The notes beneath the pieces are model-generated. The model was not told the DNA's origin and did not search any database. It saw only the letters and a list, made by a program, of their open reading frames with translations. Below are positions 3,783-46,605 of a stretch of 64,000 bases of DNA, piece by piece. Source of the stretch: an uncultured Candidatus Saccharibacteria bacterium (GTDB taxonomy: Bacteria; Patescibacteriota; Saccharimonadia; Saccharimonadales; Saccharimonadaceae). The DNA is taken from the NCBI GenBank assembly GCA_937906385.1, contig CALCYQ010000001.1:81632-145631 (forward strand), read 5' to 3'. A program made the position numbers and the translations under genes. Position 1 is the first letter of the stretch. Each line of letters opens with the position of its first letter.

Positions 3783-5147
3783 TTACATCCTTTCGCAGGC
3801 CGTGCGCACTAGCTCGCTCCAATCATTTGCGAGATGTGGCATCCGGGCCAAATCATACACGGTGAGATCTAGCATTAAAGCCATAGCGAGCTCTTGTGCG
3901 AGTAAACCGGCGTGCGGCGCCATAATCGTTGCGCCGAGCAGTTTTCCGCCTTTCTTTGTGCAAATCAACTTAATGAAGCCGCGGTCTTCGTCGGTAATAT
4001 TCGATTTTTGCACCACATCAAGCGGCAGCACAAGCTTCGAAATTTTGCGGTCCGCGCGGATGCAATCGTCTTCCGTCACACCTACTTTGGCCACTTCTGG
4101 CACAATGTTAGTCATCCGAATCACGCCGCGGTAATCTACCACCGCTTTGCTGCGCCCGATGATATGCGACACCGCTACGCGCGCATCGATGAGCGCCTTC
4201 TCGGTAGAGCTATGCCCGCCTACGACGTCACCAGCCGCATAGATATGCTTCTGCGAGGTCTTCATCGTGTCGTCAACTTGAATGCCATTGCGCGTAAATT
4301 TGACGCCGGCATTTTCGAGGCCGAGGTCGATATTTGGCGCGCTGCCGGTGCAGAGCAAAACTTGATCCACGCGCACTGATTTTTCTTGGCCACCACGGAG
4401 GAAAATCACGCGTTTGGCCACGCTGTCTTTTTCGAGCGCAATCACGCGCGACTGCGTCAAAACTTTGATGCCTTGCTTGTTAAAAACGTCATCCAAAACT
4501 TGGCCAACTTCTTCATCTTCGCGTGGCAGTAAGCGACCAGCGATATCGGCAATAATTACTTCTGTGCCGAGCGTGGCAAAGAATTGCGCCAGTTCACAGC
4601 CGGTTGGTCCAGCGCCCACGATGAAAATCGTCTTTGGCGGGCGAATCATCTCAAGCACGTTTTCTGGGAGCCAAAAATCAAAATCTTCCGGAATCGTGAT
4701 ACCCGTATCGAGCATGCTCGCGCCGGTTGCCAGCAAGATGTTTTTTGCCTTGATGGTCTTTTGTTCACCAACGCTAATTCCGTGCGCCGAAAGCAAACGG
4801 CCGAGTCCATGAATGCAATCGATGCCAGCTTCTTCGAAATCTTTTTTACTGTTGGCATGCGCGCGTTTCATCGCGACATTCTTCCAGTTATTTAGCGTTG
4901 GGTAGTTATAACGCAAACTTGCGCTCGACAAGCCAAATTTAGCGCCTTCCGTCGCAGCCCGGAATAGTTGGGTGGCATGGAATAACGCGCCCAAAGGCAC
5001 GTTTGTGTAATTCAGGCTCGAGCCGCCCCACTTCTGCGATTCGATTAAGGCGACCTTGAGTCCTGATTTCGCAGCGATTAACGCCGCTTCGCCTCCGGCA
5101 TCTCCGCTGCCAAGGATAGCCAGATCATAATCAAAACGTTTCTTCAT
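3783..5147 (-). CDS. Dihydrolipoyl dehydrogenase-like flavoprotein (class I pyridine nucleotide-disulfide oxidoreductase fold) lacking the redox-active CxxxxC
   Basis: FAD GxGxxG motif (DLAILGSGDAGG), NAD GxGxxG motif (IVGAGPTGCE), AAGD motif and a C-terminal dimerisation domain with His/Glu. The canonical GGTCLNVGCIP reads GGSSLNYTNVP here. Confidence 0.8.
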   Translation of the reverse strand: MKKRFDYDLAILGSGDAGGEAALIAAKSGLKVALIESQKWGGSSLNYTNVPLGALFHATQLFRAATEGAKFGLSSASLRYNYPTLNNWKNVAMKRAHANSKKDFEEAGIDCIHGLGRLLSAHGISVGEQKTIKAKNILLATGASMLDTGITIPEDFDFWLPENVLEMIRPPKTIFIVGAGPTGCELAQFFATLGTEVIIADIAGRLLPREDEEVGQVLDDVFNKQGIKVLTQSRVIALEKDSVAKRVIFLRGGQEKSVRVDQVLLCTGSAPNIDLGLENAGVKFTRNGIQVDDTMKTSQKHIYAAGDVVGGHSSTEKALIDARVAVSHIIGRSKAVVDYRGVIRMTNIVPEVAKVGVTEDDCIRADRKISKLVLPLDVVQKSNITDEDRGFIKLICTKKGGKLLGATIMAPHAGLLAQELAMALMLDLTVYDLARMPHLANDWSELVRTACERM

Positions 5148-6096: not shown

Positions 6097-6172
6097 GTTT
6101 TAAGTGTAGCACGCTTGGGCAATTATTGCACTTACGCTTGTTGGTTTTCTAGTTGACTGTCAGGCTAGGGGA

Positions 6173-9937: not shown

Positions 9938-10681
9938 TTACTCCTCGGATTCTTCTTCGGTTTCGAGCGGGCCGGTCTTTTCGCCAACCTTTTCAAGCTC
10001 CGCATCGAGCTTGTCGGAGATGCGTTTCATCACGTCGTCGAACGAACCCTCGGAAATATCAATCGCCTCGCCGTTAATATAAATCGCTGGCGTCGCGTTG
10101 ACTTTATCTACATTGCGGCCAATGCCGTAATCAAAATTCACTTTTTTCTCAATGTTGCCGTCGCTCATGTCGCCACGGAATTTCATCTCGTCGCCTTCCG
10201 GTGCGACTTCCTTAAATAATCGCGCGAAAATATCCGTGCGCGTGTTGCCGGAAGCCTCAATCCAATCGTTGCGGTTGCTATATAGCGTCTCGAGCATTTC
10301 CCAGTAATAGCCCTGGAAACCGGCGCTTTCGCAAGCCGCCGCTGCTGCGCGGGCGTTTTGGTGGCCGTTAATCGGGAAGTTGCGGAATACAAATGCGACG
10401 CGGTCGCCATATTGCGTGTAGAGCTTGGTCATGCGTGGCATCATCGTCGCGCAGCCCGGGCATTGCACATCGGCGTATTCCACGACGATTACTTTCGAGT
10501 CGGCCTTGCCGCGCACATGCTCGTCGATGCCGCCGTTATCTTCGTTGCCGTTAATAATTTCTGCGGAATTATATTTGCTATAGTCTGTGGTTGAGTCAGA
10601 AGATCTGAGTGTGGACCAGGCTACTAATCCACCAAAACAGGCCACGATGAAAACGATAGCCACTACTGTAAACTTATTCAT
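9938..10681 (-). CDS. DsbA-family thiol:disulfide oxidoreductase, membrane anchored
   Basis: N-terminal TM helix and thioredoxin fold with a CPGC active site (VVEYADVQCPGCATMMP). Confidence 0.8.
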   Translation of the reverse strand: MNKFTVVAIVFIVACFGGLVAWSTLRSSDSTTDYSKYNSAEIINGNEDNGGIDEHVRGKADSKVIVVEYADVQCPGCATMMPRMTKLYTQYGDRVAFVFRNFPINGHQNARAAAAACESAGFQGYYWEMLETLYSNRNDWIEASGNTRTDIFARLFKEVAPEGDEMKFRGDMSDGNIEKKVNFDYGIGRNVDKVNATPAIYINGEAIDISEGSFDDVMKRISDKLDAELEKVGEKTGPLETEEESEE

Positions 10682-10695
10682 GCTAAAATTATAGC

Positions 10696-11340
10696 ATGAC
10701 GAAGAACTTCTTTCAGAAGCTCATGACCAAGATGGTGGTGGCTCTTGATCCGAAGCTTGAAAAATATCGCCCACCGAAAAAGGTGAAACCTTTTCGGCCG
10801 GAAACCGAACAAGAACTTGTGGCCGTCCTAAAACGCACGCCCAAAGATGTCTTGCCAGATGATAAACGTAATCTCATTGCTGGTGCGATGTCTTTTGATA
10901 AAATTCCCGTTTCTAGTGTAATGGTGCCGAAAAAAGACATGATGTTCCTGCACGAAGGCGATTTTCTTGGCCCGCTATTGCTCGATAAGCTCTACAAAAC
11001 CGGTGCTGATTGTTTCCCAGTACTCGGCGCAGACAAGCAAGTCTGCGGCCTTGTCTATACGGATGAAATCGATCCGCTCAAAATCGAGGAAGACCAGCCG
11101 ATTGATAAATTCATTCAGCGCAAGGTGGCTTTTGTGCGCGGCGATTATTCGCTCGAAATGGTCATATCCACGTTTCTACGTATGCATACGGATTATTGCA
11201 TCGTCCTCGACAAGGAAATGGAAATTCAAGGCTGCCTCACGCTCGGCGACGTCACGACGCTGCTATTTAATCGCGAAATTACCGACTCTTTCGACTCTGA
11301 CGCCAGTCCATTTGCGGTCGCACACCGCACCCAAAAATAA
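10696..11340 (+). CDS. CBS-pair domain protein (CorC/TlyC-like core without membrane domain)
   Basis: Motifs ..IAGAMSFDKIPVSSVMVPKKDMMFL.. and a second CBS-like segment. Leaderless geometry: TGcTAAAAT 10681-10689, ATG 10696. Confidence 0.55.
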   Translation: MTKNFFQKLMTKMVVALDPKLEKYRPPKKVKPFRPETEQELVAVLKRTPKDVLPDDKRNLIAGAMSFDKIPVSSVMVPKKDMMFLHEGDFLGPLLLDKLYKTGADCFPVLGADKQVCGLVYTDEIDPLKIEEDQPIDKFIQRKVAFVRGDYSLEMVISTFLRMHTDYCIVLDKEMEIQGCLTLGDVTTLLFNREITDSFDSDASPFAVAHRTQK

Positions 11341-11363: not shown

Positions 11364-12311
11364 ATGATGTGGGCCATCTTTCCGATTTTTGCATCGATTT
11401 TCTACTGCGTAGGCAGCTACATTCAAAATTATTTGACCGACACCGCCTTGCCAAAAAAGCGTGCCGGCTCGCTTGCAGTGATGCATATCATCAGCTTTGC
11501 GGTGTCGCTGCTGATTTTGTTCGCAGTTTTCGGCCGTGCCGTCATGGTGATTCCGCTCGACCACGCGCTCGGCTTGATTTTAGCCGGCATAATCAACGTA
11601 ATTGGCGCTGTTTATTATTACAAGGCCATTCAAAAAGGTGACAACATCGATATTGTGGTGTTTGGCCAAGTGGCGCCACTTATTTCCATCGGCCTCGGCG
11701 TATTCTTGCTCGGCGAAATTATTACCGTCAATCAGGCGCTCGGTTTTCTGTTCATGATTGGCGCATCAGCGCTCGTAGTTTTTGGTAATCAAACCAAAAG
11801 CGAAAAGCAAAAGCCAAACTTCGGCGTCGCCATTATTACAATTATTTATTGTTTCTTCTCAGTTTTGTCGGACATCGTTTATGCGATGTTTATTTCCGAA
11901 GGTCCGGCTACTATTATTAGCTTCGCGCAGGGCTTTTTCTATTTCCAGCTTGGCTCGCTGCTAGCGGCTTTGCTTGGTTTTATTATGTTTCCAACTTGGC
12001 GTCATGCCGTCCGCACCACCTTCTTTACGGGCAAAAAACACAAATTACATTTTGCAGCTGAACTTGCCGACAATTTAATGCTTCTTGGCGGGGAAATCCT
12101 CTATAAATTTGGCCTCGTCATTGCGCCAGTCGTATCGCTAGTGTCGCCAATTGGTCGCGTCGCCAGCTTGTTCTCCAACTTTATTATCACGTTGTGTTTT
12201 GGTCGCGTCTTCCCGAAGTTTATCCGCGCCAAACGTTTTACCAGGCGTATGATTCTCAATTATATCGTTGCCGCCATCTTGATTGTGGTCGGTATCGTCA
12301 TGATGAATTAG
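11364..12311 (+). CDS. EamA/DMT-superfamily transporter
   Basis: About 10 TM helices in two similar halves, 315 aa. Leaderless geometry: TAAAAT 11352-11357. Confidence 0.55.
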   Translation: MMWAIFPIFASIFYCVGSYIQNYLTDTALPKKRAGSLAVMHIISFAVSLLILFAVFGRAVMVIPLDHALGLILAGIINVIGAVYYYKAIQKGDNIDIVVFGQVAPLISIGLGVFLLGEIITVNQALGFLFMIGASALVVFGNQTKSEKQKPNFGVAIITIIYCFFSVLSDIVYAMFISEGPATIISFAQGFFYFQLGSLLAALLGFIMFPTWRHAVRTTFFTGKKHKLHFAAELADNLMLLGGEILYKFGLVIAPVVSLVSPIGRVASLFSNFIITLCFGRVFPKFIRAKRFTRRMILNYIVAAILIVVGIVMMN

Positions 12312-15222: not shown

Positions 15223-15248
15223 TACCCCCGCTGAGGGGGTATTTTTTT
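15223..15248. terminator. Bidirectional intrinsic terminator
   Basis: taccccc/gggggta stem with gctga loop, A-run on the left and T7 on the right. Lies between convergent genes. Confidence 0.75.
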
Positions 15249-16248
15249 ATTCCAAACCTAAGTGTTTTTTCGCAAGGTCTGTCACGACGCGTCCGCGTGG
15301 CGTGCGCTGCAACATGCCAAGCTGAATCAAAAACGGCTCTAAATAATCTTCAATCGTCGAGGCTTCGTCGCCGGTTAGTGCTGCAATTGTATTTAGGCCG
15401 ACTGGTTTATCGCCGTATTTCTCAATCATCAATGTGAGCATGTTGCGGTCGGCCGGATCCAGGCCGAGCTCGTCAATCTCCAGCATGTCGAGCGCCTTTT
15501 TGGCGGTCGGCACATCTACGATACCATCACCATTCACGTCGGCGTAATCGCGCACACGCTTCAAAAGCCTGTTCGCGATGCGCGGCGTCAGGCGTGAGCG
15601 GGTGGCTAGCAACCTTGCGGCATCCGCGTCAATTTTAGTATCCAAAATCTTGGCCGAGCGCTCGATGATTTGCTGTATATCGCCATCGGCATAATACTCC
15701 AAGCGGTACGAATGACCAAAGCGATCGCGTAGCGGCCCAGCCAAATTGCCGGCTTGTGTGGTGGCGCCAATCAAAGTAAAGCGGGGAAGGTCGAGCTTCA
15801 CGCTGCGCGCGGCCGGTCCTTTACCAATCACGATATCAAGCTTGTAATCTTCCATCGCGGAGTAAAGAATCTCCTCCACGGCGCGGCGCAAACGATGAAT
15901 CTCGTCAATAAATAAAATGTCGCCATCGGTCAAGTTTGTCAGGATACTAGCAAGGTCGCCAGCTTTCTCAATCGACGGGGCAGAAGTAGCACGAAAATTT
16001 GCATTCATCTCGTGCGCAATCACGCCGGCCATAGTAGTCTTGCCAAGGCCTGGCGGACCATACAGAAGCACGTGATCCATTACATCGCCGCGTTTTTTCG
16101 CGGCATCAATCGCGAGCTTCAAATTAGTCTTCAAACGACGCTGGCCAATATATTCGTCAAAATTAGTCGGGCGCAGAGAAAACTCAACGGCACGTTCTTC
16201 GTTGTCGTCTTCGTGTAGACTGGTATCAATCACCCTCTCGATAGCCAT
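15247..16248 (-). CDS. ruvB: Holliday junction DNA helicase RuvB
   Basis: AAA+ Walker A (GPPGLGKTT), Walker B ([10 protein letters not shown]), RuvB C-terminal winged helix. Leaderless geometry on the minus strand: TGcTATAAT is the complement of 16255-16263, ATG at 16248. Confidence 0.95.
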
Positions 16249-16282
16249 ATCTGTATTATAGCACCTATGGTATAATAACTTA

Positions 16283-16349
16283 CAGAGGGATAGCTCTAGA
16301 AACTATCCCGATGGTTTGGATGAGTTAGCCTTTAGCTAACTCATTTTTT
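16283..16349 (+). ncRNA. sRNA unit 1 of a four-copy family (candidate antisense/antitoxin RNA)
   Basis: TGgTATAAT 16268-16276. Hairpin gggatag-CTCTAGAAA-ctatccc 16287-16309. Linker GATGGTTTGG. Terminator atgagttagc/gctaactcat plus T6 ending at 16349. The 5' end is predicted, not mapped. Confidence 0.55.
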
Positions 16350-16415
16350 CTAAACAAACCGGATACGGATTCGTAACTCCACTATCCACACTCGAATAGT
16401 AATCGTCACGTTCAT
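16350..16415 (-). CDS. Mini-ORF 1, 21 aa (MNVTITIRVWIVELRIRIRFV), candidate type I toxin-like peptide
   Basis: SD GAGGAAGG immediately upstream. The stop abuts the sRNA-1 terminator. Homologous to mini-ORFs 2 and 4, with synonymous codon differences. Confidence 0.45.
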   Translation of the reverse strand: MNVTITIRVWIVELRIRIRFV

Positions 16416-16587
16416 CCTTCCTCAGAGCGTCTAGTTATCTAGAATCCTGTTCATTGAAGCTCTGCGAGCTCAACAACAACTTCAATGCCAGCCCAAACCA
16501 TTAAGACACCATGCGGTGCGTTTCTGACTATATAGTCAATTACAAAACCGACAAGCATAAGTGCAATGGTTTTGGTATAATAGCATT

Positions 16588-16658
16588 AATGAGCGCAACT
16601 CTAGAAATTACGCTCGATGGTTTGGTTCGTCGCTATTTAATTAGCGACGAATTTTTTT
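16588..16658 (+). ncRNA. sRNA unit 2
   Basis: TGgTATAAT 16573-16581. Hairpin gagcgcaa-CTCTAGAAA-ttacgctc 16591-16615. Linker GATGGTTTGG. Terminator ttcgtcgcta/tagcgacgaa plus T7. Confidence 0.55.
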
Positions 16659-16721
16659 GAATTTCGGAAATCGAATTCCAAACTCCACACTGACGCCTAG
16701 GATAATTATCCGTACGCTCAT
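16641..16721 (-). CDS. Mini-ORF 2, 26 aa (MSVRIIILGVSVEFGIRFPKFKKIRR)
   Basis: SD GGAGGAA (complement of 16731-16737). The last 6 codons run through the sRNA-2 terminator hairpin. Confidence 0.45.
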   Translation of the reverse strand: MSVRIIILGVSVEFGIRFPKFKKIRR

Positions 16722-16898
16722 GTAAAGCACTTCCTCCGAGACCTCTAGCTATCTAGAATTACCGTTCAATGAAGCCTCAGCGAGCCGGGTTTCATTTGCG
16801 AATCGCAGGAACATTCAAACGGAGCAAACCTCAACCCCGAGCGAAAAGCTACCGTCAATCAATCGACAGCACAAGCATAAATACGATATAATATTATC

Positions 16899-16963
16899 AT
16901 TGAGAATAGCTCTAGAAACTATCCTCGGGTTGTTTTAGTTAGCCGTTACCGGCTAACTTTTTT
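16899..16963 (+). ncRNA. sRNA unit 3 (partner ORF deleted)
   Basis: TATAAT 16887-16892. Hairpin gagaatag-CTCTAGAAA-ctatcctc 16902-16926. Linker GGGTTGTTTT. Terminator agttagccg/cggctaact plus T5. Confidence 0.5.
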
Positions 16964-17031
16964 CGGCTTACGCACGAATCGAATTTCGGATTTCAACTAA
17001 GCATAAGTTCAAGATTTGGTATAATAACATT

Positions 17032-17102
17032 ATGGGCGCGTAACTAGGATTACGCCCAAAGTTTTGGTTTAAGTGACTCTCCTAACGGCGAGCCACTTTT
17101 TT
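17032..17102 (+). ncRNA. sRNA unit 4 (diverged copy)
   Basis: TGgTATAAT 17017-17025. Bulged hairpin gggcg(cg)taa-CTAGGA-ttacgccc 17034-17057. Linker AAAGTTTTGGTTTA. Imperfect terminator 17073-17096 plus T6. Confidence 0.5.
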
Positions 17103-17165
17103 ACGCTTCGTCACATCGATACTTAGCGTAACTCTCACGATCCACAACTTAATGCAGACACTCAA
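17082..17165 (-). CDS. Mini-ORF 4, 27 aa, TTG start (MSVCIKLWIVRVTLSIDVTKRKKVARR)
   Basis: SD GAAAGGAG with a 5-nt spacer to TTG. The 3' 21 nt lie inside the sRNA-4 terminator. Aligns with mini-ORF 2 (MSV.I....V.V...I...K.KK..RR). Confidence 0.4.
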   Translation of the reverse strand: MSVCIKLWIVRVTLSIDVTKRKKVARR

Positions 17166-17330
17166 ATCACTCCTTTCCCATGGACTCTAGCGAGGCCTAG
17201 TATGCTGTTTATTGAGTCCATGCGAGATGAACTTAATATTTGCGTAAGGGATAAACCAAGATTCCCGACTCAAAATAGCGTCAATAAAAATCGATTAAAA
17301 GCATAAGTTCAAGATTTTTCGCACAAACCC

Positions 17331-17564
17331 TATAAAAACAGATATAATAAAGGTGGAACTTACAATTTAACAATATATCGCGTTTTAGCTGACGCATTTT
17401 CGCGTTGCAAAAACTTTGATTGCAGCTCCCATAGGAGTCGGTCTTATAGTTTTTGCCTAAAACGCGAAATTGTAGGTTCCAGCCGGCGACTTGGGGGCTG
17501 CAATTTTTATTAAATTGCTGTGCCAAAAAATTATCAAACATAAGAGTAATTGGAACCTACGATT
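17331..17564 (+). promoter_or_regulatory. Promoter(s) and about 220-nt structured 5' leader of the Type III mod gene
   Basis: TTCAAG-17-TATAAA (17308-17336) and gaTATAAT (17343-17348). Helices: 17355-17366 with 17469-17480; 17379-17387 with 17458-17466; 17420-17430 with 17493-17503 followed by T5. Box GGAACCTAC is repeated at 17552-17560, directly before the ATG. Confidence 0.5.
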
Positions 17565-19478
17565 ATGAGCAGCCTCATTGAACTGCTACCAAAGGTAGTC
17601 AGTGAGGGGCGCAGAGAAGCAAATAGAATTTTGGACGGACTTTCTGCTGCGTCCCGTATTACTTTACAAACTAATGAACTTATTCAGCCGCACAAGGACC
17701 GCAGTCAGGCAGAAATCCTCAACGACGATATTGAATATGTTGACGATTGGAAGAATCGCCTAGTCTATGGCGATAATCTACTAGTCATGCAGGCACTTTT
17801 GGCTGGCGACCCGGCTTCGGGCCTACCTAGCATGCGCGGCAAAATTGACTTGATTTATATTGATCCGCCATATGATAGCAAGGCAGATTATCGTACGAAA
17901 ATAGAACTTCCGGGTGCGAATATTGACAGTAAACCGACCGTGCTTGAGCAGTTTGCTTACGCTGACACTTGGAGTGCGAACATTGATGGCGAAGACGTGA
18001 AGGGTACAGCTGCTTATTTAAAATATATGTATCCGCGGTTGGTAGTTATGAGAGAGCTCTTAAGTGAGCGGGGCAATATATGTGTTCATCTAGATTATCA
18101 TGTCGGCGCGTATATGCGCGTAATACTTGATGATATATTTGGTAAGGAAAATTTAAAAAATGAAATAATATGGGGCTATTCTGGCGGAGGAGTTTCAAAG
18201 AATAAATTTGCCCAGAAGCACGATACACTTTATTGTTACGCGAAAAGTAATGATTCGATTTTTAATGCTCAATATGCGCCATATTCTGAAAAATCCCAAG
18301 CTCTCATTAACTCAAGAGGAGGAACTAGTATTGATGGAAAAGAAAGAGATTTGGGCCGCGGAAAACATATGGAGGACTGGTGGGGCGATATACAATCACT
18401 TCAAACGTTTGATACGGAACGAGTTAATTATGGAACTCAGAAGCCAGAAAAACTATTGGAAAGAATAGAAAAGGCTTTTTCGAATAATGGCTCTATCGTC
18501 GCCGATTTCTTTGGCGGCTCCGGCACTACTGCTGCGGTAGCGGAAAAACTTGGCCGTAAATGGATTACTTCGGACATCGGCAAACCTGCCACTATGATTA
18601 TGCGCAAACGTTTCATCGATAACGACGCTGGTGAATTTCTATATCAATCCGTTGGCGATTATCAGCGCGAGCAAATGAGTACAAACTTTGGTACACGTTT
18701 CCGCGTTGGTGATTTAAATCAAATCGTCATTAACTTGTATGGTGCTGTTCCGTTCCGCGAAGAAGATAATCCGCGTCGCAACTTAGGCAAAATTCCGCGC
18801 ACGAAACGTCTCGTTTATGTCGCTTCGCCGTCGGAATTAGTTTCGGCAAATACCATCAAACGCGCGCTTGATGAAATGAATACTTTTCAGGGCGGATGGG
18901 ATAAAGTTGCATTGCTCGGCTGGAATTTCCGTAGCGACCTTGGCGCATATTTGGAAACGCTCGAAGAATACAAGAATGGTACGCTGACGATTGAAATTAT
19001 CCCGCCAGATCTTCTCGACCAATTGAAGAGCAAAACTACGTTTAAGAAACTTAGCGACCAAGTTGCGGTCGATCCAGACGGTACAATTCGTACACCAGTT
19101 CGCTTCTCATCACTCCAGTATCTCACCATTAAAGACCCAATCGTGAACGGCAACGAAATTACTGTAGAGCTAGATAACTATGTAATTTTATCTTCGGATT
19201 CTTTGCCACTCGATTCCAAGAATAAAGAAAAAATGAATGAAGTTATTGCGCGTGACCCGCTTGCACTAATTGAATATTGGTCTATCGATACCGACTTTGA
19301 CGGCAACGTCTTCCGCAGTACTTGGCAGGATTATCGCCAAAATACCGATAACGATAGTGACGCACTGCATGTCGTAAACAAAGTTACGCTCCCGCTTAAC
19401 AATACAACTGGCCTTATTGCTATCAGGGCAGTAGACGTCTTTGGCTTTGAAAGTGAAGTAATTGCAAGGATTGATTGA
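17565..19478 (+). CDS. mod: Type III restriction-modification DNA methyltransferase (Mod), N6-adenine/N4-cytosine beta class
   Basis: Motif [12 protein letters not shown] precedes motif [24 protein letters not shown]. About 640 aa and immediately followed by res. Start taken at ATG 17565 rather than TTG 17550. Confidence 0.9.
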
Positions 19479-19481
19479 TAT

Positions 19482-22382
19482 ATGGAAATTGACGAACAAA
19501 AACGCTACAAATATCCTCCACTAGCCTTTGCGAAGGCCGTAACTGAACGCGCCAAAGCAGCCTGGGAAGACGGCAGCTTTATGGAATCTGTCACACCAAC
19601 TACGCGCGCATTGTTAACTTACTGGTTCGACGATGCTTATGTAGATATGCGCGACCTGAACTTCCATATTGGGCAGCGTAATGCCATCATGAATATTATT
19701 TATATTCATGAAGTGCTCAAAAAAGATAAAGTTGTTGATGTTTATAATGAAATCGCTCCGCAGCTCCTATTGGAACGTGGCGGTACAAAGTTGAGTGAAC
19801 TTGGCGACGATATTTATTCCTTCCCAAAATACTGCGTAAAAATGGCAACCGGTACCGGTAAAACTTGGGTGCTTGAAGCCTTAATGATTTGGCAATACTT
19901 AAATGCCAAACATAACGAAGAAGGAAACTATACTAAGAATTTCCTCGTTGTTGCGCCTGGCTTAATCGTCTATGAACGTTTGCTCGATGCGTTCCTCGGC
20001 AAAATGAACGACGATGGCCAAACTCGCAATTTCGAAACGTGTGATATTAAGAAATTCGAGAATCTATTTTTGCCAGAAGAATACCGTAATGAATTTTACG
20101 GTTTTTTGCAGAGTAGCGTAGCCGCCAAAACCGAAATTGGTAGTAAAGTTACCGGTGATGGTTTAATTGCTATTACAAACTTTCATTTACTCATGGGGGC
20201 AGATGAGCAAGAAGACGAACCGGGCATTGACGACGGTTGGCGCTTGCCGGTTGCTCCGGGTATTACGGCGGGAAATAGCCTAGATTCGTTAGATAATTCG
20301 CTCCGCGGTAAAAAGGAGCTCGAATTCCTACACAATCTTCCGGACCTTATGATGATTAACGACGAGGCCCATCACATTCACGACAATATAAAGGGTGGTG
20401 AAAAGGAAGAAGTTGAATGGCAAAAATCTTTGCGCTACATCGCCGAAGGCAAAGCTAATCGTGCTATGCAGTTAGATTTTTCCGCCACGCCATACAACCA
20501 AAAGGGCAAAGAAAAAGTTTATTTTCCACACATTGTTGTAGATTTCGATTTAACTGACGCGATTCGTCGTGGTTTAGTGAAAACTTTGATGCTTTCCGAG
20601 CGTAAAGAATTAGCAACTGAGGCTCTAGTTTTTAAAGCTGTGCGCAATGATCGCGGCGAGGTGGTGGATTTGTCTGATGGTCAACGCCAAATGCTTCGCG
20701 CCGGTCTTTCGAAACTAGCAAAACTCGAAGAAGAGTTTAGGGATGTCGATTCGACCAAACGACCAAAGATGATGGTAGTTTGTGAAGATACAAACGTAGT
20801 ACCGTTAGTTGCAAATTTTCTAAAGCTCGAAGGTTTAAGTCAAGAAGAATTTATAGAAATTCACAGCAATAAGAAAGGCGAAGTTGGCGAAGAAGAGTGG
20901 AATAATCTTCGCAACAAATTATTCGCGCTCGATCGTCACGAGAACCCACGCGTGGTTATTTCTGTTTTAATGCTTCGCGAAGGTTTTGACGTTAATAATA
21001 TCTGCGTTATCGTTCCGCTACGTAGTACAACTTCCGGAATTCTTCTAGAACAAACAATCGGTCGCGGTCTGCGCTTGATGTGGCGTGGCAATAAAGAAAT
21101 CGACGAGCTCAAAAATGAGAACCGTCGCGCGATTATGGTCGAGCATAAGGCGGCAACTAATTATTTCGACGTCTTATCGATCGTAGAACATCCGGCATTT
21201 CGCGATTTCTACGACGAGTTAGTAAACGGCGGCTTAATGGGTGTCGAGGATGGCGATGAAGAACTTGGAGACGATGGTAGGAAAGTTAAAGGCGACTTAA
21301 TTCCAGTCGGATTAAAAGACGATTATATGGATTACGATTTTCGCCTTCCGTTAATTATTAATGAGGCGGAGTCTGTCATGAAAACTCCATCGTTAGATGT
21401 TACGAAATTGAAACCATTCGGGATGAGCTATGACGCGCTTATCAAAATGATTCCAGAACGCGAGCAGTGGATTGATCAAGAAGTACTCAGCGGTGTTAAT
21501 GCTGGCTATTTCGAGGTGACATCCGGAGTATTTCGCTCTACTAGCTATAACGATTATCTAAGCCGTATTACGAATCATATCGTCGAAAAACTAAATACCG
21601 CCGACAGTCTTGGCCGTAGCCGTAAGGCATTAGATTTTCCTATTCTGTCTATTAATAATGTTCAAATTGCCGCATTAATAGATAAATATATTCGCAAGCA
21701 ATTATTTGGGCGCGAAATTAATCCAGCCGAAGGGAAGAACTGGAAGGCATTATTAATTACGGAAGTAATGAATCATATTATTGGGCAAATAGCTTCCGCT
21801 ATCATCGCCTCGCAAGAAGAGGCGGAGAATGTGGGCGAGACGAATGTAGTCTTTACGCCATTCTCAAGCGTAAATAAAATCACTGTTCGCGAAAACTATA
21901 GCCTAGATTTAGCAAAGTGCATCTACGAAAAGTGTCCATTCCCGAGCAATAAGGGCCAATATGAGCGCGATTTTATGGAATTTTGCGACAAAGATGGCGA
22001 GGTGGACGCTCTGTGCAAAGTGATAGAAAACCGCCATACTTTTGCTCGTTTTCGCTACGTGCGCGAAGATGGTATGCCGGCAGAATATATTCCTGATTTT
22101 GTAGTGCGTATTGGTAGCGATAATTATCTAGTAGAGACTAAATCTCAAGATCAAATATCGCACCAAAACGTCATCCGCAAAAAACGCGCAGCACTTCGTT
22201 GGGTTGAAAGAATTAATGACTTACCGCTCGGTAAGCGTGAAGATATTACCTGGCATTACGTACTCCTCGGCGACGCCACATTTTATGAATGGAAACGTAA
22301 AAATATGACAATTCGCGAGTTGCTAGAGTTCGCCGAAATTCGTAACAACGATGAGTTAAACTTCACTGGAAAATTATTCTAA
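19482..22382 (+). CDS. res: Type III restriction enzyme Res subunit (SF2 helicase plus PD-(D/E)xK nuclease)
   Basis: Walker A MATGTGKTW, DEAH box (MMINDEAHH), helicase motif VI (QTIGRGLR), C-terminal nuclease motif YIPDF..LVETK. Confidence 0.9.
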   Translation: MEIDEQKRYKYPPLAFAKAVTERAKAAWEDGSFMESVTPTTRALLTYWFDDAYVDMRDLNFHIGQRNAIMNIIYIHEVLKKDKVVDVYNEIAPQLLLERGGTKLSELGDDIYSFPKYCVKMATGTGKTWVLEALMIWQYLNAKHNEEGNYTKNFLVVAPGLIVYERLLDAFLGKMNDDGQTRNFETCDIKKFENLFLPEEYRNEFYGFLQSSVAAKTEIGSKVTGDGLIAITNFHLLMGADEQEDEPGIDDGWRLPVAPGITAGNSLDSLDNSLRGKKELEFLHNLPDLMMINDEAHHIHDNIKGGEKEEVEWQKSLRYIAEGKANRAMQLDFSATPYNQKGKEKVYFPHIVVDFDLTDAIRRGLVKTLMLSERKELATEALVFKAVRNDRGEVVDLSDGQRQMLRAGLSKLAKLEEEFRDVDSTKRPKMMVVCEDTNVVPLVANFLKLEGLSQEEFIEIHSNKKGEVGEEEWNNLRNKLFALDRHENPRVVISVLMLREGFDVNNICVIVPLRSTTSGILLEQTIGRGLRLMWRGNKEIDELKNENRRAIMVEHKAATNYFDVLSIVEHPAFRDFYDELVNGGLMGVEDGDEELGDDGRKVKGDLIPVGLKDDYMDYDFRLPLIINEAESVMKTPSLDVTKLKPFGMSYDALIKMIPEREQWIDQEVLSGVNAGYFEVTSGVFRSTSYNDYLSRITNHIVEKLNTADSLGRSRKALDFPILSINNVQIAALIDKYIRKQLFGREINPAEGKNWKALLITEVMNHIIGQIASAIIASQEEAENVGETNVVFTPFSSVNKITVRENYSLDLAKCIYEKCPFPSNKGQYERDFMEFCDKDGEVDALCKVIENRHTFARFRYVREDGMPAEYIPDFVVRIGSDNYLVETKSQDQISHQNVIRKKRAALRWVERINDLPLGKREDITWHYVLLGDATFYEWKRKNMTIRELLEFAEIRNNDELNFTGKLF

Positions 22383-22417: not shown

Positions 22418-22945
22418 ATGGACCCAAGTTTATTAGCATTTATATTGGCTATTCTAATCGCGGCGCCAGTTTTAGCGCTAATGATTCAGAAAAGTAGTTT
22501 TAAGGCCACCAACAATCAAAAAACTATCAAAAAATCGACCTATCACTATTTTGCAAAAAACTACATCATGACTCAGCGCGAGTCCGAATTCTTTAAGCAG
22601 CTCAACGAAATGCTCGGCAGTAAATGGTATATCATTCCGCAGGTTCATTTATCGGCATTGCTAAACCATAAAGTAAAAGGGCAAAACTGGAACGCCGCCT
22701 TCAAGCATATTAATGGCAAATCTGTTGATTACGTCTTACTTAGTAAGGAAAATATGAAGCCAGTTTGCGCTATCGAATTAGACGATTCTACGCACGACCG
22801 CACGGATCGTACGGAACGCGATGCAGAAGTTGAACGCATTTTTGCTTCTGCAAAAATCCCTCTTGCTCGTTTACGCAAGCCCGAAGAAATGTCTCGCCAG
22901 GAAATTGTGAATATTATAGCTGAAGCAATCAAAAGAGTTAAATAA
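22418..22945 (+). CDS. DUF2726-domain protein (restriction-endonuclease-like fold), membrane anchored
   Basis: N-terminal TM helix. ESEFFKQL..IIPQVHLSALL..KSVDYVLLSKENMKPVCAIELDDSTHD matches the DUF2726 core. Leaderless geometry: TAAAAT 22406-22411. Confidence 0.65.
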   Translation: MDPSLLAFILAILIAAPVLALMIQKSSFKATNNQKTIKKSTYHYFAKNYIMTQRESEFFKQLNEMLGSKWYIIPQVHLSALLNHKVKGQNWNAAFKHINGKSVDYVLLSKENMKPVCAIELDDSTHDRTDRTERDAEVERIFASAKIPLARLRKPEEMSRQEIVNIIAEAIKRVK

Positions 22946-36389: not shown

Positions 36390-36548
36390 GATTGCTTCCT
36401 TGTAATTTAGTTAATTTATTATATCGTATCATTTTTTCCTCTATTTGACCACTACTAGCTAAAAAACATTGAAATTATGCTTTTAAGATGGCTTGGTTGA
36501 GAGTATTTTAAAATTCCAATTTAACAAAATTAAGGAGATCATCATCGC

Positions 36549-40218: not shown

Positions 40219-41430
40219 ATGAAATTTCGCGAGACGAAAGATAATCTTCCGATCATTATTTTGGCTCTTACCATTATCTGTCTTGTTTTTGGTATCGTCT
40301 CGAAACAAACCGGCATTTTCGCGAGCGCGACTTCGAGCGACGGGGAAGGCGGCGCGGTCGTCTCATCTGAGCATTATATTACGATTTACGACGGCGATAA
40401 TAAAATCACCGTGCGTAGTAACGCTAATACTATTCGCGAGGCCCTCGAGCGCGCCGACGTCAAGGTCAGTGAGTCCGACACGGTCGAACCAGCGCTCGAT
40501 GAAACGATTAACGAAGAAAACTTCAATATCAACATTTACCGCGCACGCGAAGTGGTCGTACTTGATGGCCAAACCAAGAAATATATCAAAACCGCCGCGA
40601 CGGACCCTATTAAAGTTGCTGAAGCTGCCGGTGTCGAAATCCTTGAAGCCGATCTTGTTAAAGTCGAATCATTTAATAATTTGCTCGAAAGCGGCATGTC
40701 CGCCGCCTACCGCGTATATCATGCCAAAACTGTTAAATTGAATTTCTTTGGTAAAAATGTCGAGCTGCGCACCCAAGCCAAAACCGTGCGCGAGTTTTTG
40801 GCGGAGCGCGAAATAGATATGAATCCAGAAATCAACTGGATTTCCGTGCCAGAAAACACCAAAATTACCGACGGTATTGCGTTTAGTATTTTCCGCCAAG
40901 GCAAACAAACCGTCGTCGTTGACGAAGTTATTAAGTTTAATGAAAAAACGACTTACGATTTCTCGCTCGATTATGGCAAACGCGAAATTACCAAAGCTGG
41001 TCAAAACGGTTCGCGCACCGTTACTTATGAAATCGACATGAAAGATGGCAAAGAACTCTCGCGCAAAGTTATCTCTAGCATCGTCACTAAAGAACCGGTT
41101 ACGCAAGAAGTAAAAGTCGGCATGAATATTGACTTGCCGGCCGGCACGCACGAGGATTGGATGGCCGCCGTCGGCATTTCGCCGAGCGACTACGGCTACG
41201 TTAATTACATCATCACTCGCGAATCACATTGGAACCCGCTTTCGCGCAACGTTTCAAGCGGTGCCACCGGACTCTGTCAAGCACTCCCAGGTAGCAAGAT
41301 GGCCATCGCCGGCGCCGACTGGGAAACCAATCCGATTACGCAGTTGCGTTGGTGTAATGGCTACGCCGTTGGCCGTTATGGTAGCTGGCAAAAGGCTTAC
41401 GAATTCTGGATCAAGAACCATTGGTGGTAA
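40219..41430 (+). CDS. DUF348/G5-domain cell-wall hydrolase (RpfB/YabE-like architecture, lysozyme-like C-terminal domain)
   Basis: N-terminal TM helix, repeated DUF348-like units (..ITVRSNANTIREALERADVKV.., ..TQAKTVREFLAEREI..), G5-like segment (KAGQNGSRTVTYE), C-terminal YVNYIITRESHWNPLSRNVSSGATGLCQALPGSKM. Confidence 0.6.
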   Translation: MKFRETKDNLPIIILALTIICLVFGIVSKQTGIFASATSSDGEGGAVVSSEHYITIYDGDNKITVRSNANTIREALERADVKVSESDTVEPALDETINEENFNINIYRAREVVVLDGQTKKYIKTAATDPIKVAEAAGVEILEADLVKVESFNNLLESGMSAAYRVYHAKTVKLNFFGKNVELRTQAKTVREFLAEREIDMNPEINWISVPENTKITDGIAFSIFRQGKQTVVVDEVIKFNEKTTYDFSLDYGKREITKAGQNGSRTVTYEIDMKDGKELSRKVISSIVTKEPVTQEVKVGMNIDLPAGTHEDWMAAVGISPSDYGYVNYIITRESHWNPLSRNVSSGATGLCQALPGSKMAIAGADWETNPITQLRWCNGYAVGRYGSWQKAYEFWIKNHWW

Positions 41431-44621: not shown

Positions 44622-46529
44622 CTATTTCATCCAATATTGTTTGCCACTCAGAATGTCGTAGGTTAATAGCTCATAATCGTGCATTAATTCGGAATTTTTT
44701 AATTCGCGATCTTGCAGATAGTTTTTCGTCAAAATCGGCTCCGCTGCACAAACCTCGTCCACTAGATAATAAAGGGAAGACTTCTGCCAGTTTAGGATGT
44801 TTTGCATCGTATTTGCCATGCAGTTTGGCGTGGTGGTTGGTAATTTTTTCGTCGTAAAATTGGCGTCGTAGTTTGCATAGACAAAGTATGGCGTCACACG
44901 TGCCAAATCGCGCTCTTCTTTGACAGGGCTGTCGTTTAGCAAGTCAAATAAACCAGCCGAATGGTCGCCAAACCACAATACAACTACTTTTTTATCGAGC
45001 TGATCGAGCCCATCGATAAATTCGCCTAAGTATTCGTCGGAACTATGCAACATCTGGAAGTAAGACGGAATTTCCCAGGCTCGCGATTCGCGGTCGATCG
45101 TCGGTTCGAATTCGACTTCAAATTCATTTTTTTCGTAAATATCACCCCAATATGGTGTGTGGTTCTGCATCGTAATCAAGCCAACTACTTGATTGTCGTC
45201 GCTCTCTTGCAGGACCTTTAGTGTCTGCTGATAGGCGGAGCGGTCGTTGATGTAATCCGACTTGCCGTCATGCTCGGTATAATCCATCTCGAGCTCAGTA
45301 ATGAACGTGTCGAAGCCCTCGTTTTTGAGTGCGATATTGCGCTTGTACATACCGCCGTTAAATGGGTGAATTGCTGTCGTGGCATAATTGCGCGCTTTCA
45401 GCTCCTGTATGAGCGACGGAATTTCGCCAGTTTTTGGCAGCAGCGCTGTATATGGCACGGAATCAATCCAATAATTCGTCATGCTCGTAAACGCCTCGAA
45501 CTCGATATTCGCGGTGCCACCACCATAATCGAGCGAATACATGTAGCCGCTCGGATATTTTTGCATGATGCGGTGTAGATTTGGCGTTACGTCGCCGCTG
45601 TACTTGTAGAAGTCGCGGAAATTCACGCCCTGGAACGATACGTTCGGATCGTAAAATGATTCATTCAAAATAATTACTACGCTCACGTTTTCTTCGGCCG
45701 GATCTTTGCGCTTAGCATTTTCCGTTTCAGCAATGTCTACATATTCGGCTTTGAGCTCGGCAATTTTGCTCTCGCTATATTTATCCGGTTCGGCGATACG
45801 CAGCTTTTGCAAGTTGTACAAAAAGCCCAGCACAAAGCCATTATCGTTGTAATTGCGGTTTTGGTTCCAAGCCGTAAAATGCGTGCCGAGAAAAGTGTCT
45901 TCATAGCGGCTGCCATCGTTGTGGCGCACGAAATCTGTACTAAAGAAGAATGAGAGCGCTGCAATTGCTACAATCATCACGCGCGTGCCGAGCATGTTTC
46001 GCTTAGACCAGCTCGGACTTGGCGTTTCGTAATGGAGGCGCATTTTGCGCGCCAAAAACTTCTCGAATAGAATCGTCAAGGCGGCAATCATTACGCAAGC
46101 CACCACCATTCGCACAATCGACCAAACGTCAACGAATTTCGTCAACGTAGCTGCCTCGGATGCGAGCTGAAAATCTTCAGGTAGCAGCGGAAAACCGCGC
46201 GAGCGATATTTATTGATGTGAATATAAGTAATAATTACAATCAAAATCCATGAGCTACCTACAGCCACGCCTGGCCGGCCAGTAATCCCCCACAAAATTG
46301 CGACAATAAAGAAGAGCAGCAGCGCATTAAAGAAAAACGGCGCCGCATTCTTAAAAATAAAATCCCAAGTGCTTCCGAAATCGTTGATGAAATACCGGTA
46401 TTCCAAGAACCAGGTCAGCAAAATTGCCCCCACTATCAAAAATAGCAATGACGACAGCCAATATTTCTGACGCGCCGACAGTTTTGGCGATTTAATCTTG
46501 GATTTCGGCTGATTTTTTCGCTTCTTCAT
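44622..46529 (-). CDS. LTA synthase/phosphoglycerol-transferase family sulfatase-fold membrane protein
   Basis: Five N-terminal TM helices then a sulfatase-type domain (VVIILNESF.., ..GGTANIEFE.., ..WFGDHS..). Confidence 0.7.
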   Translation of the reverse strand: MKKRKNQPKSKIKSPKLSARQKYWLSSLLFLIVGAILLTWFLEYRYFINDFGSTWDFIFKNAAPFFFNALLLFFIVAILWGITGRPGVAVGSSWILIVIITYIHINKYRSRGFPLLPEDFQLASEAATLTKFVDVWSIVRMVVACVMIAALTILFEKFLARKMRLHYETPSPSWSKRNMLGTRVMIVAIAALSFFFSTDFVRHNDGSRYEDTFLGTHFTAWNQNRNYNDNGFVLGFLYNLQKLRIAEPDKYSESKIAELKAEYVDIAETENAKRKDPAEENVSVVIILNESFYDPNVSFQGVNFRDFYKYSGDVTPNLHRIMQKYPSGYMYSLDYGGGTANIEFEAFTSMTNYWIDSVPYTALLPKTGEIPSLIQELKARNYATTAIHPFNGGMYKRNIALKNEGFDTFITELEMDYTEHDGKSDYINDRSAYQQTLKVLQESDDNQVVGLITMQNHTPYWGDIYEKNEFEVEFEPTIDRESRAWEIPSYFQMLHSSDEYLGEFIDGLDQLDKKVVVLWFGDHSAGLFDLLNDSPVKEERDLARVTPYFVYANYDANFTTKKLPTTTPNCMANTMQNILNWQKSSLYYLVDEVCAAEPILTKNYLQDRELKNSELMHDYELLTYDILSGKQYWMK

Positions 46530-46605
46530 CCTTCAATTATAGCATGGCTTAACAGAGATTAAACTTATGCTTTGCTACGCGTGAATTGACTGTTAATGTG
46601 GGCGC

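Follow-up and report, generated by a model that had tools for sequence, protein, structure and literature searches.

The window analysed here is a 64,000-nucleotide stretch of DNA from an uncultured Candidatus Saccharibacteria bacterium of the ruminant gut, and its subject is an array of four homologous units. The array fills the 1.3-kb spacer between the gene for RuvB (15247-16248, minus strand; 94% identical to RuvB of a Candidatus Saccharibacteria metagenome-assembled genome (MAG)) and a Type III restriction-modification (R-M) operon formed by mod (17565-19478), res (19482-22382) and a DUF2726 gene (22418-22945). All four units follow the same plan on the plus strand: an upstream AAGCAT element, an extended -10 box (TGGTATAAT), a hairpin, a G/U-rich linker and a terminator hairpin with a run of U, which together specify a small RNA (sRNA). 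On the minus strand, units 1, 2 and 4 bear a mini open reading frame (mini-ORF) with a Shine-Dalgarno sequence (SD), and unit 3 consists of the sRNA and the last 16 codons of an ORF. Each SD is directly preceded by the conserved element CUCGC-stem-UUCAAUGAAC..UCUAG-AUAA-CUAGA-stem. We are confident that these units are real antisense-paired mini-protein genes, as their sequences indicate, and that they form a new family.

Mini-ORFs and coding selection

Mini-ORF 1 (subfamily a; 16350-16415, minus strand) translates from its ATG as MNVTITIRVWIVELRIRIRFV. This ATG is 0 nt from the SD and three homologues begin two codons later, at the position of a GTG at 16409, so ATG 16415 is probably not the start; judged by the homologue starts, the probable product is the 19-residue MTITIRVWIVELRIRIRFV. 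Homologues read MTITIRIWVVEFGIRIRFV, MTLTVRIWKVEFGVRIRFV and MVITIRLWIMEFRIRIRFV, and among the pairs nonsynonymous differences (pN) are 0.13-0.23 versus 0.32-0.90 for synonymous ones (pS). Mini-ORF 2 (subfamily b; 16641-16721, minus strand; MSVRIIILGVSVEFGIRFPKFKKIRR) is nested in a longer GTG-started ORF reaching 16730. Its homologue in the related locus L081 is MSVRITIMGVSVEFGIRFPKFKKIRR, with seven of nine differences at third codon positions (pN 0.04, pS 0.36). Mini-ORF 4 (subfamily c; 17082-17165, minus strand; MSVCIKLWIVRVTLSIDVTKRKKVARR) starts with TTG, and both frame and TTG are preserved in L084 (two copies) and L085. The remnant in unit 3 (subfamily d; 16946-16996, minus strand), which ends in ..KSEIRFVRKPKKVSR before its stop, is truncated at the 5′ end by the unit 4 promoter and matches the intact MVLAFRIWIVELKSEIRFVRKPKKVSR of L087. 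MSVCIKLWIVRVTLSIDVTK is an example of a mini-ORF peptide sequence.

The SDs are GAGGAAGG for mini-ORF 1 (reverse complement of 16416-16423), GGAGGAA for mini-ORF 2 (16731-16737) and GAAAGGAG for mini-ORF 4 (17170-17177). An earlier note on this DNA had listed the three ORFs, their translations and these SD strings, all of which are present; its start for the first ORF, at 16415, is likely to be replaced by GTG 16409.

For comparison we used 80 related, RuvB-defined loci, all from Saccharibacteria or Nanosyncoccus and mostly from the ruminant gut. An exact-sequence look-up of the window's RuvB retrieved no record. A profile of the window units led to L001 and L003, in genome MAGs, and a pattern scan of metagenome contigs with the 5′ untranslated region (UTR) led to eight loci, L081-L088. 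About 24 further units lie in 11 related MAG and metagenome contigs, and iterated nhmmer returns 27 unit matches, the window's four included.

The chance level of ORFs is high, with 59 of at least 20 residues in 4 kb, so that length alone is not above chance. The three ORFs do exceed chance because of their conservation in 16 further homologous units and their coding pattern of substitution. An intact ORF occurs at the same place and in the same frame in 19 units. These ORFs, of 19-28 codons, encode six peptide subfamilies whose consensus is M-S-x-x-I-R-I-W-x-V-E-x-x-x-x-I-R-F-V, sometimes followed by a KKxxR tail. The earlier suggestion that the peptides align without gaps holds across the first 19-20 residues of all six subfamilies, although the best register between mini-ORFs 1 and 4 pairs W8 with W8 counted from the GTG start.

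Within subfamilies, differences are most frequent at third codon positions and least frequent at second positions, and pairwise pN is 0.02-0.23 versus a pS of typically 0.3-0.9. When all pairs within subfamilies are added up, the ORF frame has the lowest pN/pS of the six frames, 0.29 (other sense frames 0.87 and 2.36; antisense frames 0.80, 0.45 and 1.95), and the signal recurs in five subfamilies. Insertions and deletions in the ORFs comprise whole codons (for example, KPKKVSR versus KPNKKVSR), the start codon and SD stay in register across all units, and the peptides remain alike between subfamilies whose DNA is barely alignable. On this pattern of substitution the peptide sequence is under purifying selection, and the third-position drift that had been read as a coding signal from three ORFs stands in the wider family; comparison across loci thus confirms the earlier observation and strengthens it.

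Coding on the plus strand was considered and rejected. Of the 19 units, 16 have an open mirror antisense frame, whose pN/pS of 0.45 is higher than that of the ORF frame; this mirror frame has no start codon or SD, comes after a terminator and contains stops in subfamily f. Two plus-strand ORFs located 3′ of the UTR element (16769-16891 and 17202-17306) are without an SD and mutually dissimilar.

Convergent small RNAs

sRNA 1, the candidate antitoxin of the first unit, occupies 16283-16349 (plus strand) downstream of the extended -10 at 16268-16276 and scores 49 bits with a covariance model built for the family. Its 5′ hairpin, whose loop is CUCUAGAAA, is followed by the linker GAUGGUUUGG and then by a terminator hairpin that has a U-run. 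sRNA 2 (16588-16658, plus strand; 59 bits) is preceded by the -10 box TATAAT at 16576-16581, and sRNA 4 (17032-17102, plus strand; 47 bits) by a -10 box at 17020-17025. sRNA 3 (16899-16963, plus strand; 69 bits) is an orphan, its partner ORF being 5′-truncated, and the same orphan is found in L084. The hairpin loop is the same in all window sRNAs except that of unit 4, where it is AACUAGGAU.

Relative to shuffled sequences, the four window copies fold with z-scores of -4.6, -3.9, -3.9 and -1.4. Across 24 sequences the 5′ hairpin displays compensatory changes at eight of eight pairs and 84% of cells are paired, versus 22-44% in slid controls; its covariation was reached by none of 500 shuffles. 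The CUAG in the loop, which is of the YUNR type, is invariant. The covariance model recovers 25 copies at E ≤ 3e-5, and the promoter, hairpin loop and terminator of the sRNA are the most conserved parts of the unit. Rfam at its gathering threshold identified tRNAs alone over the window and no antitoxin or antisense RNA family, and at E ≤ 10 on both strands of 16150-17650 it gave only two chance snoRNA matches (E ~2).

The -10 box of sRNA 1 (16271-16276, plus strand) and the putative one of leaderless ruvB (~16254-16259, minus strand) are divergent and ~10 nt apart, an arrangement preserved in L083, L084 and L085. The two promoters may be mutually exclusive.

A predicted, structured minus-strand mRNA

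In mRNA 1, the SD and a structured 5′UTR span 16416-16469 (minus strand), as defined by an alignment of 17 units. The outer stem joins CAGAGC (16459-16464) to GCUCUG (16423-16428) around the hairpin UCUAG-AUAA-CUAGA. Upstream, a leader and promoter-like region (16470-16558, minus strand) contains a hairpin in the 5′ part of the leader, ATGCTT at 16558-16553 and a -10-like TATAGT at 16532-16527; the promoter was read as TTGTCG-16-TATAGT, with a predicted transcription start site (TSS) near 16519. The region upstream of mini-ORF 2 (16722-16878, minus strand) comprises the SD, a leader, a -10-like TAGCTT at 16851-16846 and ATGCTT at 16878-16873, and its UTR stem pairs 16736-16742 with 16774-16780 through two G-U pairs among others. 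Upstream of mini-ORF 4 (17166-17304, minus strand) are the SD, a leader carrying UUGGUUUA, a -10-like TATTTT at 17277-17272 and ATGCTT at 17304-17299, and the stem CAUGGACUC/GAGUCCAUG pairs 17214-17222 with 17179-17187.

The outer stem of the 5′UTR is paired in 100% of cells of the 17 aligned units, versus 29-45% in slid controls, with compensatory changes at five of seven pairs. Six of the cells hold G-U or U-G pairs, which can form only in minus-strand RNA, as the plus strand would have A-C mismatches there. ATGCTT is present on the mRNA-sense strand in 19 of 19 units and is followed 20-21 nt later by TAnnnT in 18 of them, versus at most three at each other offset from 5 to 44. The ATGCTT element is common to the mRNA promoter and the back-to-back sRNA promoter of the next unit. 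We regard ATGCTT-N20/21-TAnnnT as a promoter-like motif without a consensus -10 box and, on this sequence evidence, conclude that a minus-strand mRNA exists.

Many ordinary genes here either appear leaderless (rTGCTAtAAT-N6-7-ATG) or have an SD with a 5-12-nt spacer, and SD-led mini-ORFs are therefore normal for the organism. Candidate leaderless genes have the extended -10 rTGCTAtAAT 6-7 nt before the ATG and no SD; examples are ruvB (16246-16262, minus strand) and the regions upstream of 9938-10681 (-), 10696-11340 (+), 11364-12311 (+), 40219-41430 (+) and 44622-46529 (-), and other genes have an AAGGAGG-type SD. A motif, AAGCATAAGTnCAA, occurs 17 nt 5′ of -10 boxes both before ordinary genes (6126-6139 (-), 36469-36482 (-) and 46559-46572 (-)) and in the array (16553, 16999 and 17299 (+)). 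It may be a -35 or upstream promoter element of the organism, unlike TTGACA.

The tetranucleotide CTAG reaches 8.5 copies per kb in the array (16249-17549) versus 1.9 per kb elsewhere in the window, and all array copies are at conserved sites, namely the sRNA loop and both arms of the UTR hairpin. The idea that CTAG is a generally avoided word was rejected, as the window holds 129 copies against 120 expected and the enrichment is local to the array. TCTAGA might be a recognition site for a protein or methylase.

Overlap and pairing of the two RNAs

In subfamilies b, c and d the ORF stop is inside the sRNA terminator, with the KK of the basic tail complementary to the terminator U-run. As these ORFs end within the terminator, their mRNAs must overlap the sRNA gene. 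In the window this applies to the final codons of mini-ORF 2 and to the stops of mini-ORFs 2 (16641-16643) and 4 (17082-17084), which are in the terminator hairpins of sRNAs 2 and 4; the earlier note had placed the two stops there. For subfamilies a, e and f, the overlap hinges on the inferred 3′ end of the mRNA.

Full-length mRNAs, modelled as starting at the predicted TSS and ending opposite the sRNA start, fold with z-scores of -6.1, -3.1 and -4.0 versus shuffled controls. In most of 17 units, the mRNA is predicted to close 5′-3′ through a helix that a leader motif forms with the sequence complementary to the sRNA linker. In unit 1 this motif is AUGGUUUGG (16501-16493, minus strand), which would pair with 16319-16311; it is AUGGUUUGG throughout subfamily a, UUGGUUUA in c, GUUGGUUUAG in e and GUGUUUUG in the b unit of L081. 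In each case the motif is identical to the linker of the cognate sRNA, and the two co-vary across subfamilies, predicted duplexes averaging -14.7 kcal/mol for cognate versus -12.8 kcal/mol for different-subfamily pairs (permutation p = 0.0055). Because the motif repeats and tracks the linker, the mRNA can be argued to extend through the sRNA complement, with leader and sRNA competing for one site. A second possible leader helix, recognised by inspection (CAUUGAAGUU/AGCUUCAAUG in subfamily a and AUGAGGCUC/GAGCCUCAU in subfamily d), shares sequence with the 5′ arm of the outer, covarying stem, which suggests a switch beside the SD. The 5′ domain of the sRNA can also pair with the 5′UTR via the UCUAGA that they have in common.

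Properties of the peptides

The peptides carry a net charge of +2 to +9, and their longest uncharged run is 5-8 residues. The hydrophobic moment is 0.37-0.84 at 170 degrees (β) versus 0.02-0.41 at 100 degrees (α); ten known type I toxins have a low β moment. We judge the peptides to be cationic amphipathic β-strands and not transmembrane (TM) helices, which bears out the earlier remark that they are β-strand-like and have no obvious TM helix. Six peptides matched nothing in Pfam and NCBIfam at E ≤ 10, nor any anti-phage defence profile of PADLOC-DB at the same threshold.

Designed β-sheet peptides of the form (X1Y1X2Y2)n, for example IRIKIRIK, are bactericidal by membrane disruption (PMC4330034). 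The mini-ORF peptides resemble them in the alternation of hydrophobic and cationic residues, as in ..LRIRIRFV of mini-ORF 1, whereas the designed peptides are synthetic amidated 8-12-mers applied externally. We know of no natural intracellular toxin of cationic β-strand design. By analogy, a membrane-damaging activity of the peptides is plausible.

Turnover and decay of the arrays

The order of units is a, b, d-remnant, c in the window; a, c2, d-remnant, c in L084; a, d, c in L085; d, b, a-remnant in L081; and d, e in L003. Composition thus varies among close relatives, and the units form fast-turnover tandem arrays that adjoin R-M genes of differing kinds (Type III or Type II). In most other relatives defined by RuvB, among them L002 (93% RuvB identity), no unit is present within 6 kb of ruvB. 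The 5′UTR pattern scan gave no match in viral contigs, so there is no sign of carriage by phages.

A second conserved site, flanked by a GntR-family gene and a UvrD-like helicase gene, harbours the diverged subfamily f (MSIQLRVWR..; L001 240-460, L085 5213-5442 and L088 6339-6484). In the f unit of L088, the 5′UTR and promoter are lost and replaced.

Decay of the units is one-sided. None of 18 intact ORFs is without an sRNA, and six intact sRNAs face deleted, truncated or degenerate ORFs, five in arrays and one in a Nanosyncoccus MAG, L015. The array losses amount to at least three independent events (window unit 3 and L084; L081 and L086; the e unit of L088), and in L083 a 1-nt deletion at the start has shifted the frame. 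Such asymmetric decay is as expected, at the level of sequence, of a harmful gene that needs an RNA guardian; the 5′ truncations could also be produced by recombination between the repeated promoters.

The sRNA copy of L015 is weaker (26 bits, E 0.005 with the covariance model) and syntenic, next to a ruvB whose product is 75% identical. Located at 4334-4400 (-), it has a perfect stem of 9 bp with CUCUAGGGA as its loop, together with a terminator and the consensus promoter TTGACA-17-TATAAT. No family ORF is found opposite it, and it is either an old orphan or an independently functioning sRNA.

Comparison with type I toxin-antitoxin systems

Among described systems, the unit layout comes closest, by analogy, to the type I toxin-antitoxin (TA) locus par of pAD1 (Fst RNAI/RNAII, Enterococcus faecalis), and is also close to txpA/RatA and bsrG/SR4. 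RNAI and RNAII of par are convergent and use 5′ direct repeats, and RatA pairs with the 3′ end of the txpA mRNA to form a cleavable duplex (PMC8167048). The units share with par a convergent mRNA and ~65-nt sRNA that overlap at the terminator, additional complementarity from 5′ repeats (here, direct repeats containing TCTAGAA in the sRNA hairpin and 5′UTR), a structured mRNA 5′ region beside the ribosome-binding site and a peptide whose C-terminal tail is charged (PMC8167048). However, Fst has a TM domain and the mini-ORF peptides have none. There is no similarity in sequence or in Rfam, and the peptides do not belong to the Fst/Ldr profile, a charged tail alone being common. Moreover, the units' hairpin lacks a U-tract on the mRNA strand and their 5′ interaction is not cognate-specific.

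With txpA/RatA, bsrG/SR4 and yonT/SR6 of Bacillus subtilis the units share a convergent antisense RNA on the 3′ end of the toxin mRNA, duplex decay as the main proposed control and a location in accessory DNA (PMC8167048; excerpts of PMC3834814 and PMC5848175). The differences are that these toxins are hydrophobic membrane proteins of 38-59 residues, that RatA, SR4 and SR6 are 100-220 nt long and not homologous to the units, and that the hosts belong to a different phylum.

Long-range 5′-3′ pairing renders the full-length toxin mRNA inert in hok/sok (Escherichia coli plasmid R1) and aapA1/IsoA1 (Helicobacter pylori). The predicted helix from leader to 3′ end in most units is similar, but the antisense RNA of these systems covers the 5′ part of the mRNA, whereas the sRNA of the units covers the 3′ part, such that 5′ leader and sRNA would compete for one 3′ site.

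The units resemble type I systems in having a small gene with the substitution pattern of translated sequence, and an antisense RNA gene overlapping it, a convergent sRNA with promoter, covarying hairpin and terminator. As first proposed, the type I architecture included a terminator shared by both RNAs. The convergence of ORF and sRNA and their overlap stand, and the covarying sRNA hairpin and the asymmetric decay add to them; a par-like bidirectional terminator is unsupported, as a minus-strand U-tract is absent from the terminator hairpins.

A structured leader beside the array

The array is separated from the Type III mod gene by a structured RNA leader of ~215 nt (17352-17565, plus strand), with a minimum free energy of -80 kcal/mol (z -6.2) and no match in Rfam. 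Copies are found at L087 424-649, L082 207-433, L081 2672-2897, L003 645-870 (-) and L088 686-906. About 190 nt are invariant in six loci, yet the downstream mod coding sequences are three different alleles. The 3′ arm of the leader (17467-17481) has alternative partners, 17354-17368 or the start-codon region 17551-17564, and the modelled folds suggest a translational switch.

A 13-mer, AGCCTCATTGAAC, at mod codons 3-6 (17571-17583, plus strand) is identical to a segment of the d-type 5′UTRs of L085 and L087, and the b-type UTR of the window (16764-16775) matches it at 12 of 13 positions. A regulator common to both is possible.

Proposed mechanism and alternatives

Whether the units act as type I TA modules is, in our estimate, evenly poised between yes and no. 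Coding selection, RNA structures, promoter and terminator motifs and the geometry of the overlap were computed; the transcript ends, repression by the sRNA and toxicity are what we infer. In the proposed mechanism, the ATGCTT-N20/21-TAnnnT promoter would give rise to a minus-strand mRNA of ~220-250 nt, comprising a structured 5′UTR of ~100 nt, the SD and an ORF of 19-28 codons. The near-consensus extended -10 would drive a plus-strand RNA of ~65 nt with a 5′ CUAG-loop hairpin, a single-stranded G/U-rich linker and an intrinsic terminator. Since the mRNA would traverse the sRNA complement, the two would be perfectly complementary over up to ~65 nt, including the last 5-8 codons in subfamilies b, c and d. 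sRNA in excess would pair with the 3′ part of the mRNA, leading to cleavage or decay of the duplex, and perhaps would also block the mRNA 5′ end via the common UCUAGA elements. Without sRNA, the leader that repeats the sRNA linker would shut the mRNA by the 5′-3′ helix, and translation would then be controlled by the mutually exclusive pair of 5′UTR helices beside the SD. The peptide, once made, would be harmful, most plausibly by membrane disruption like the designed (hydrophobic-cationic)n β-sheet peptides.

Several points weigh against a TA function. The maximal 15-residue hydropathy of the peptides (KD15) is 0.6-1.8 versus 1.8-3.2 in the ten known toxins, and the hydrophobic, usually membrane-spanning toxin typical of type I systems is not what these ORFs encode. 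Some accepted type I toxins, SymE and RalR, are likewise not membrane peptides. The strength and spacing of the SD are variable, subfamilies d and e carrying only GAGAAAGA, and the substitution counts come from related, phylogenetically non-independent pairs and very short ORFs. No recognisable intrinsic terminator was found for the mRNA, so that its 3′ end, and with it the extent of overlap, is a predicted one. The predicted duplex of sRNA and 5′UTR has no specificity (cognate -21.4 versus non-cognate -21.3 kcal/mol); preferential pairing of the sRNA 5′ domain with its own 5′UTR was thus rejected, and specificity must stem from the cis overlap. In a more distant genus a homologue of the sRNA is retained where no family ORF is present, so the sRNA may have an independent function. 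Finally, the case for a TA system is computational throughout.

Of the alternatives, the most serious, though we think it the less likely reading, is that the mini-ORF products are small non-toxic proteins and the cis-antisense sRNA does no more than tune their expression, the TA-like layout being a convergent design rather than one for addiction or abortive defence. Such peptides might act in regulation, bind nucleic acids or ribosomes, or be directed against the host bacterium or competitors. The Arg/Lys-rich composition, the lack of a TM helix and of any match to a toxin family, and the survival of the sRNA beyond the ORF in L015 all fit such proteins, and purifying selection is compatible with any functional peptide. 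Less readily explained are the tandem, diversified paralogues, patchy among close relatives and located in an R-M island, and the one-way decay in which ORFs are lost but sRNAs kept. The strong sRNA promoter also opposes an mRNA promoter without a consensus -10, and the elaborate self-closing structure of the mRNA is as expected for a product that needs to stay off. For an extracellular role, in addition, there is no signal peptide or export gene.

It is considerably less probable that the sRNAs are the functional genes, regulating for example the mod leader or ruvB in trans, with the opposite ORFs as passengers. This would account for the sRNA promoter, loop and terminator being the best conserved parts of the unit, for the maintenance of orphan sRNAs, for arrays always being directly upstream of the conserved mod leader and for the 13-nt motif common to d-type UTRs and the first mod codons. 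Yet it is the ORF frame that is under the strongest purifying selection of the six, and the covariation of the minus-strand 5′UTR stem implies that the minus-strand gene is itself selected. The mod leader was rejected as a target, since the complementarity of window sRNAs to the leader and start region is not above chance (z +1.2 to -0.3) and no better than that of shuffled sRNAs. We give very little credence to the view that the ORFs are untranslated and conserved by RNA- or DNA-level constraint on a repeated non-coding element: chance ORFs of this size are common and in 16 of 19 units an antisense frame is open too, but that mirror frame has the higher pN/pS, no start codon or SD, a position after a terminator and stops in subfamily f, and the ORFs have whole-codon indels, aligned starts and SDs, and peptides that stay similar where the DNA barely aligns.

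Significance

According to the excerpted text of PMC12390103, type I TA systems are reported from Proteobacteria, Firmicutes and Tenericutes only. Our full-text literature search found no report of one in Saccharibacteria, Patescibacteria or the Candidate Phyla Radiation (CPR), in agreement with the earlier note, which knew of no such family in CPR bacteria. We therefore propose, more tentatively than the TA function itself, that the array may represent the first type I TA family in CPR bacteria. Its toxin would be a cationic amphipathic β-strand peptide of 19-28 residues, and its mRNA would be locked by a leader that mimics the antitoxin linker, with leader and antitoxin competing for one 3′ site. 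As the units are small and well delimited, and 19 natural variants are at hand, the hypothesis is directly testable.

If the peptides are toxic, they would constitute a new toxin design, a cationic β-strand without a TM helix, and searches for type I toxins based on hydrophobicity would overlook whole families. Saccharibacteria have tiny genomes and live on host bacteria. Given that 1.3 kb of such a genome is devoted to an array with fast turnover adjacent to R-M genes, the array likely matters for genome stability or phage defence.

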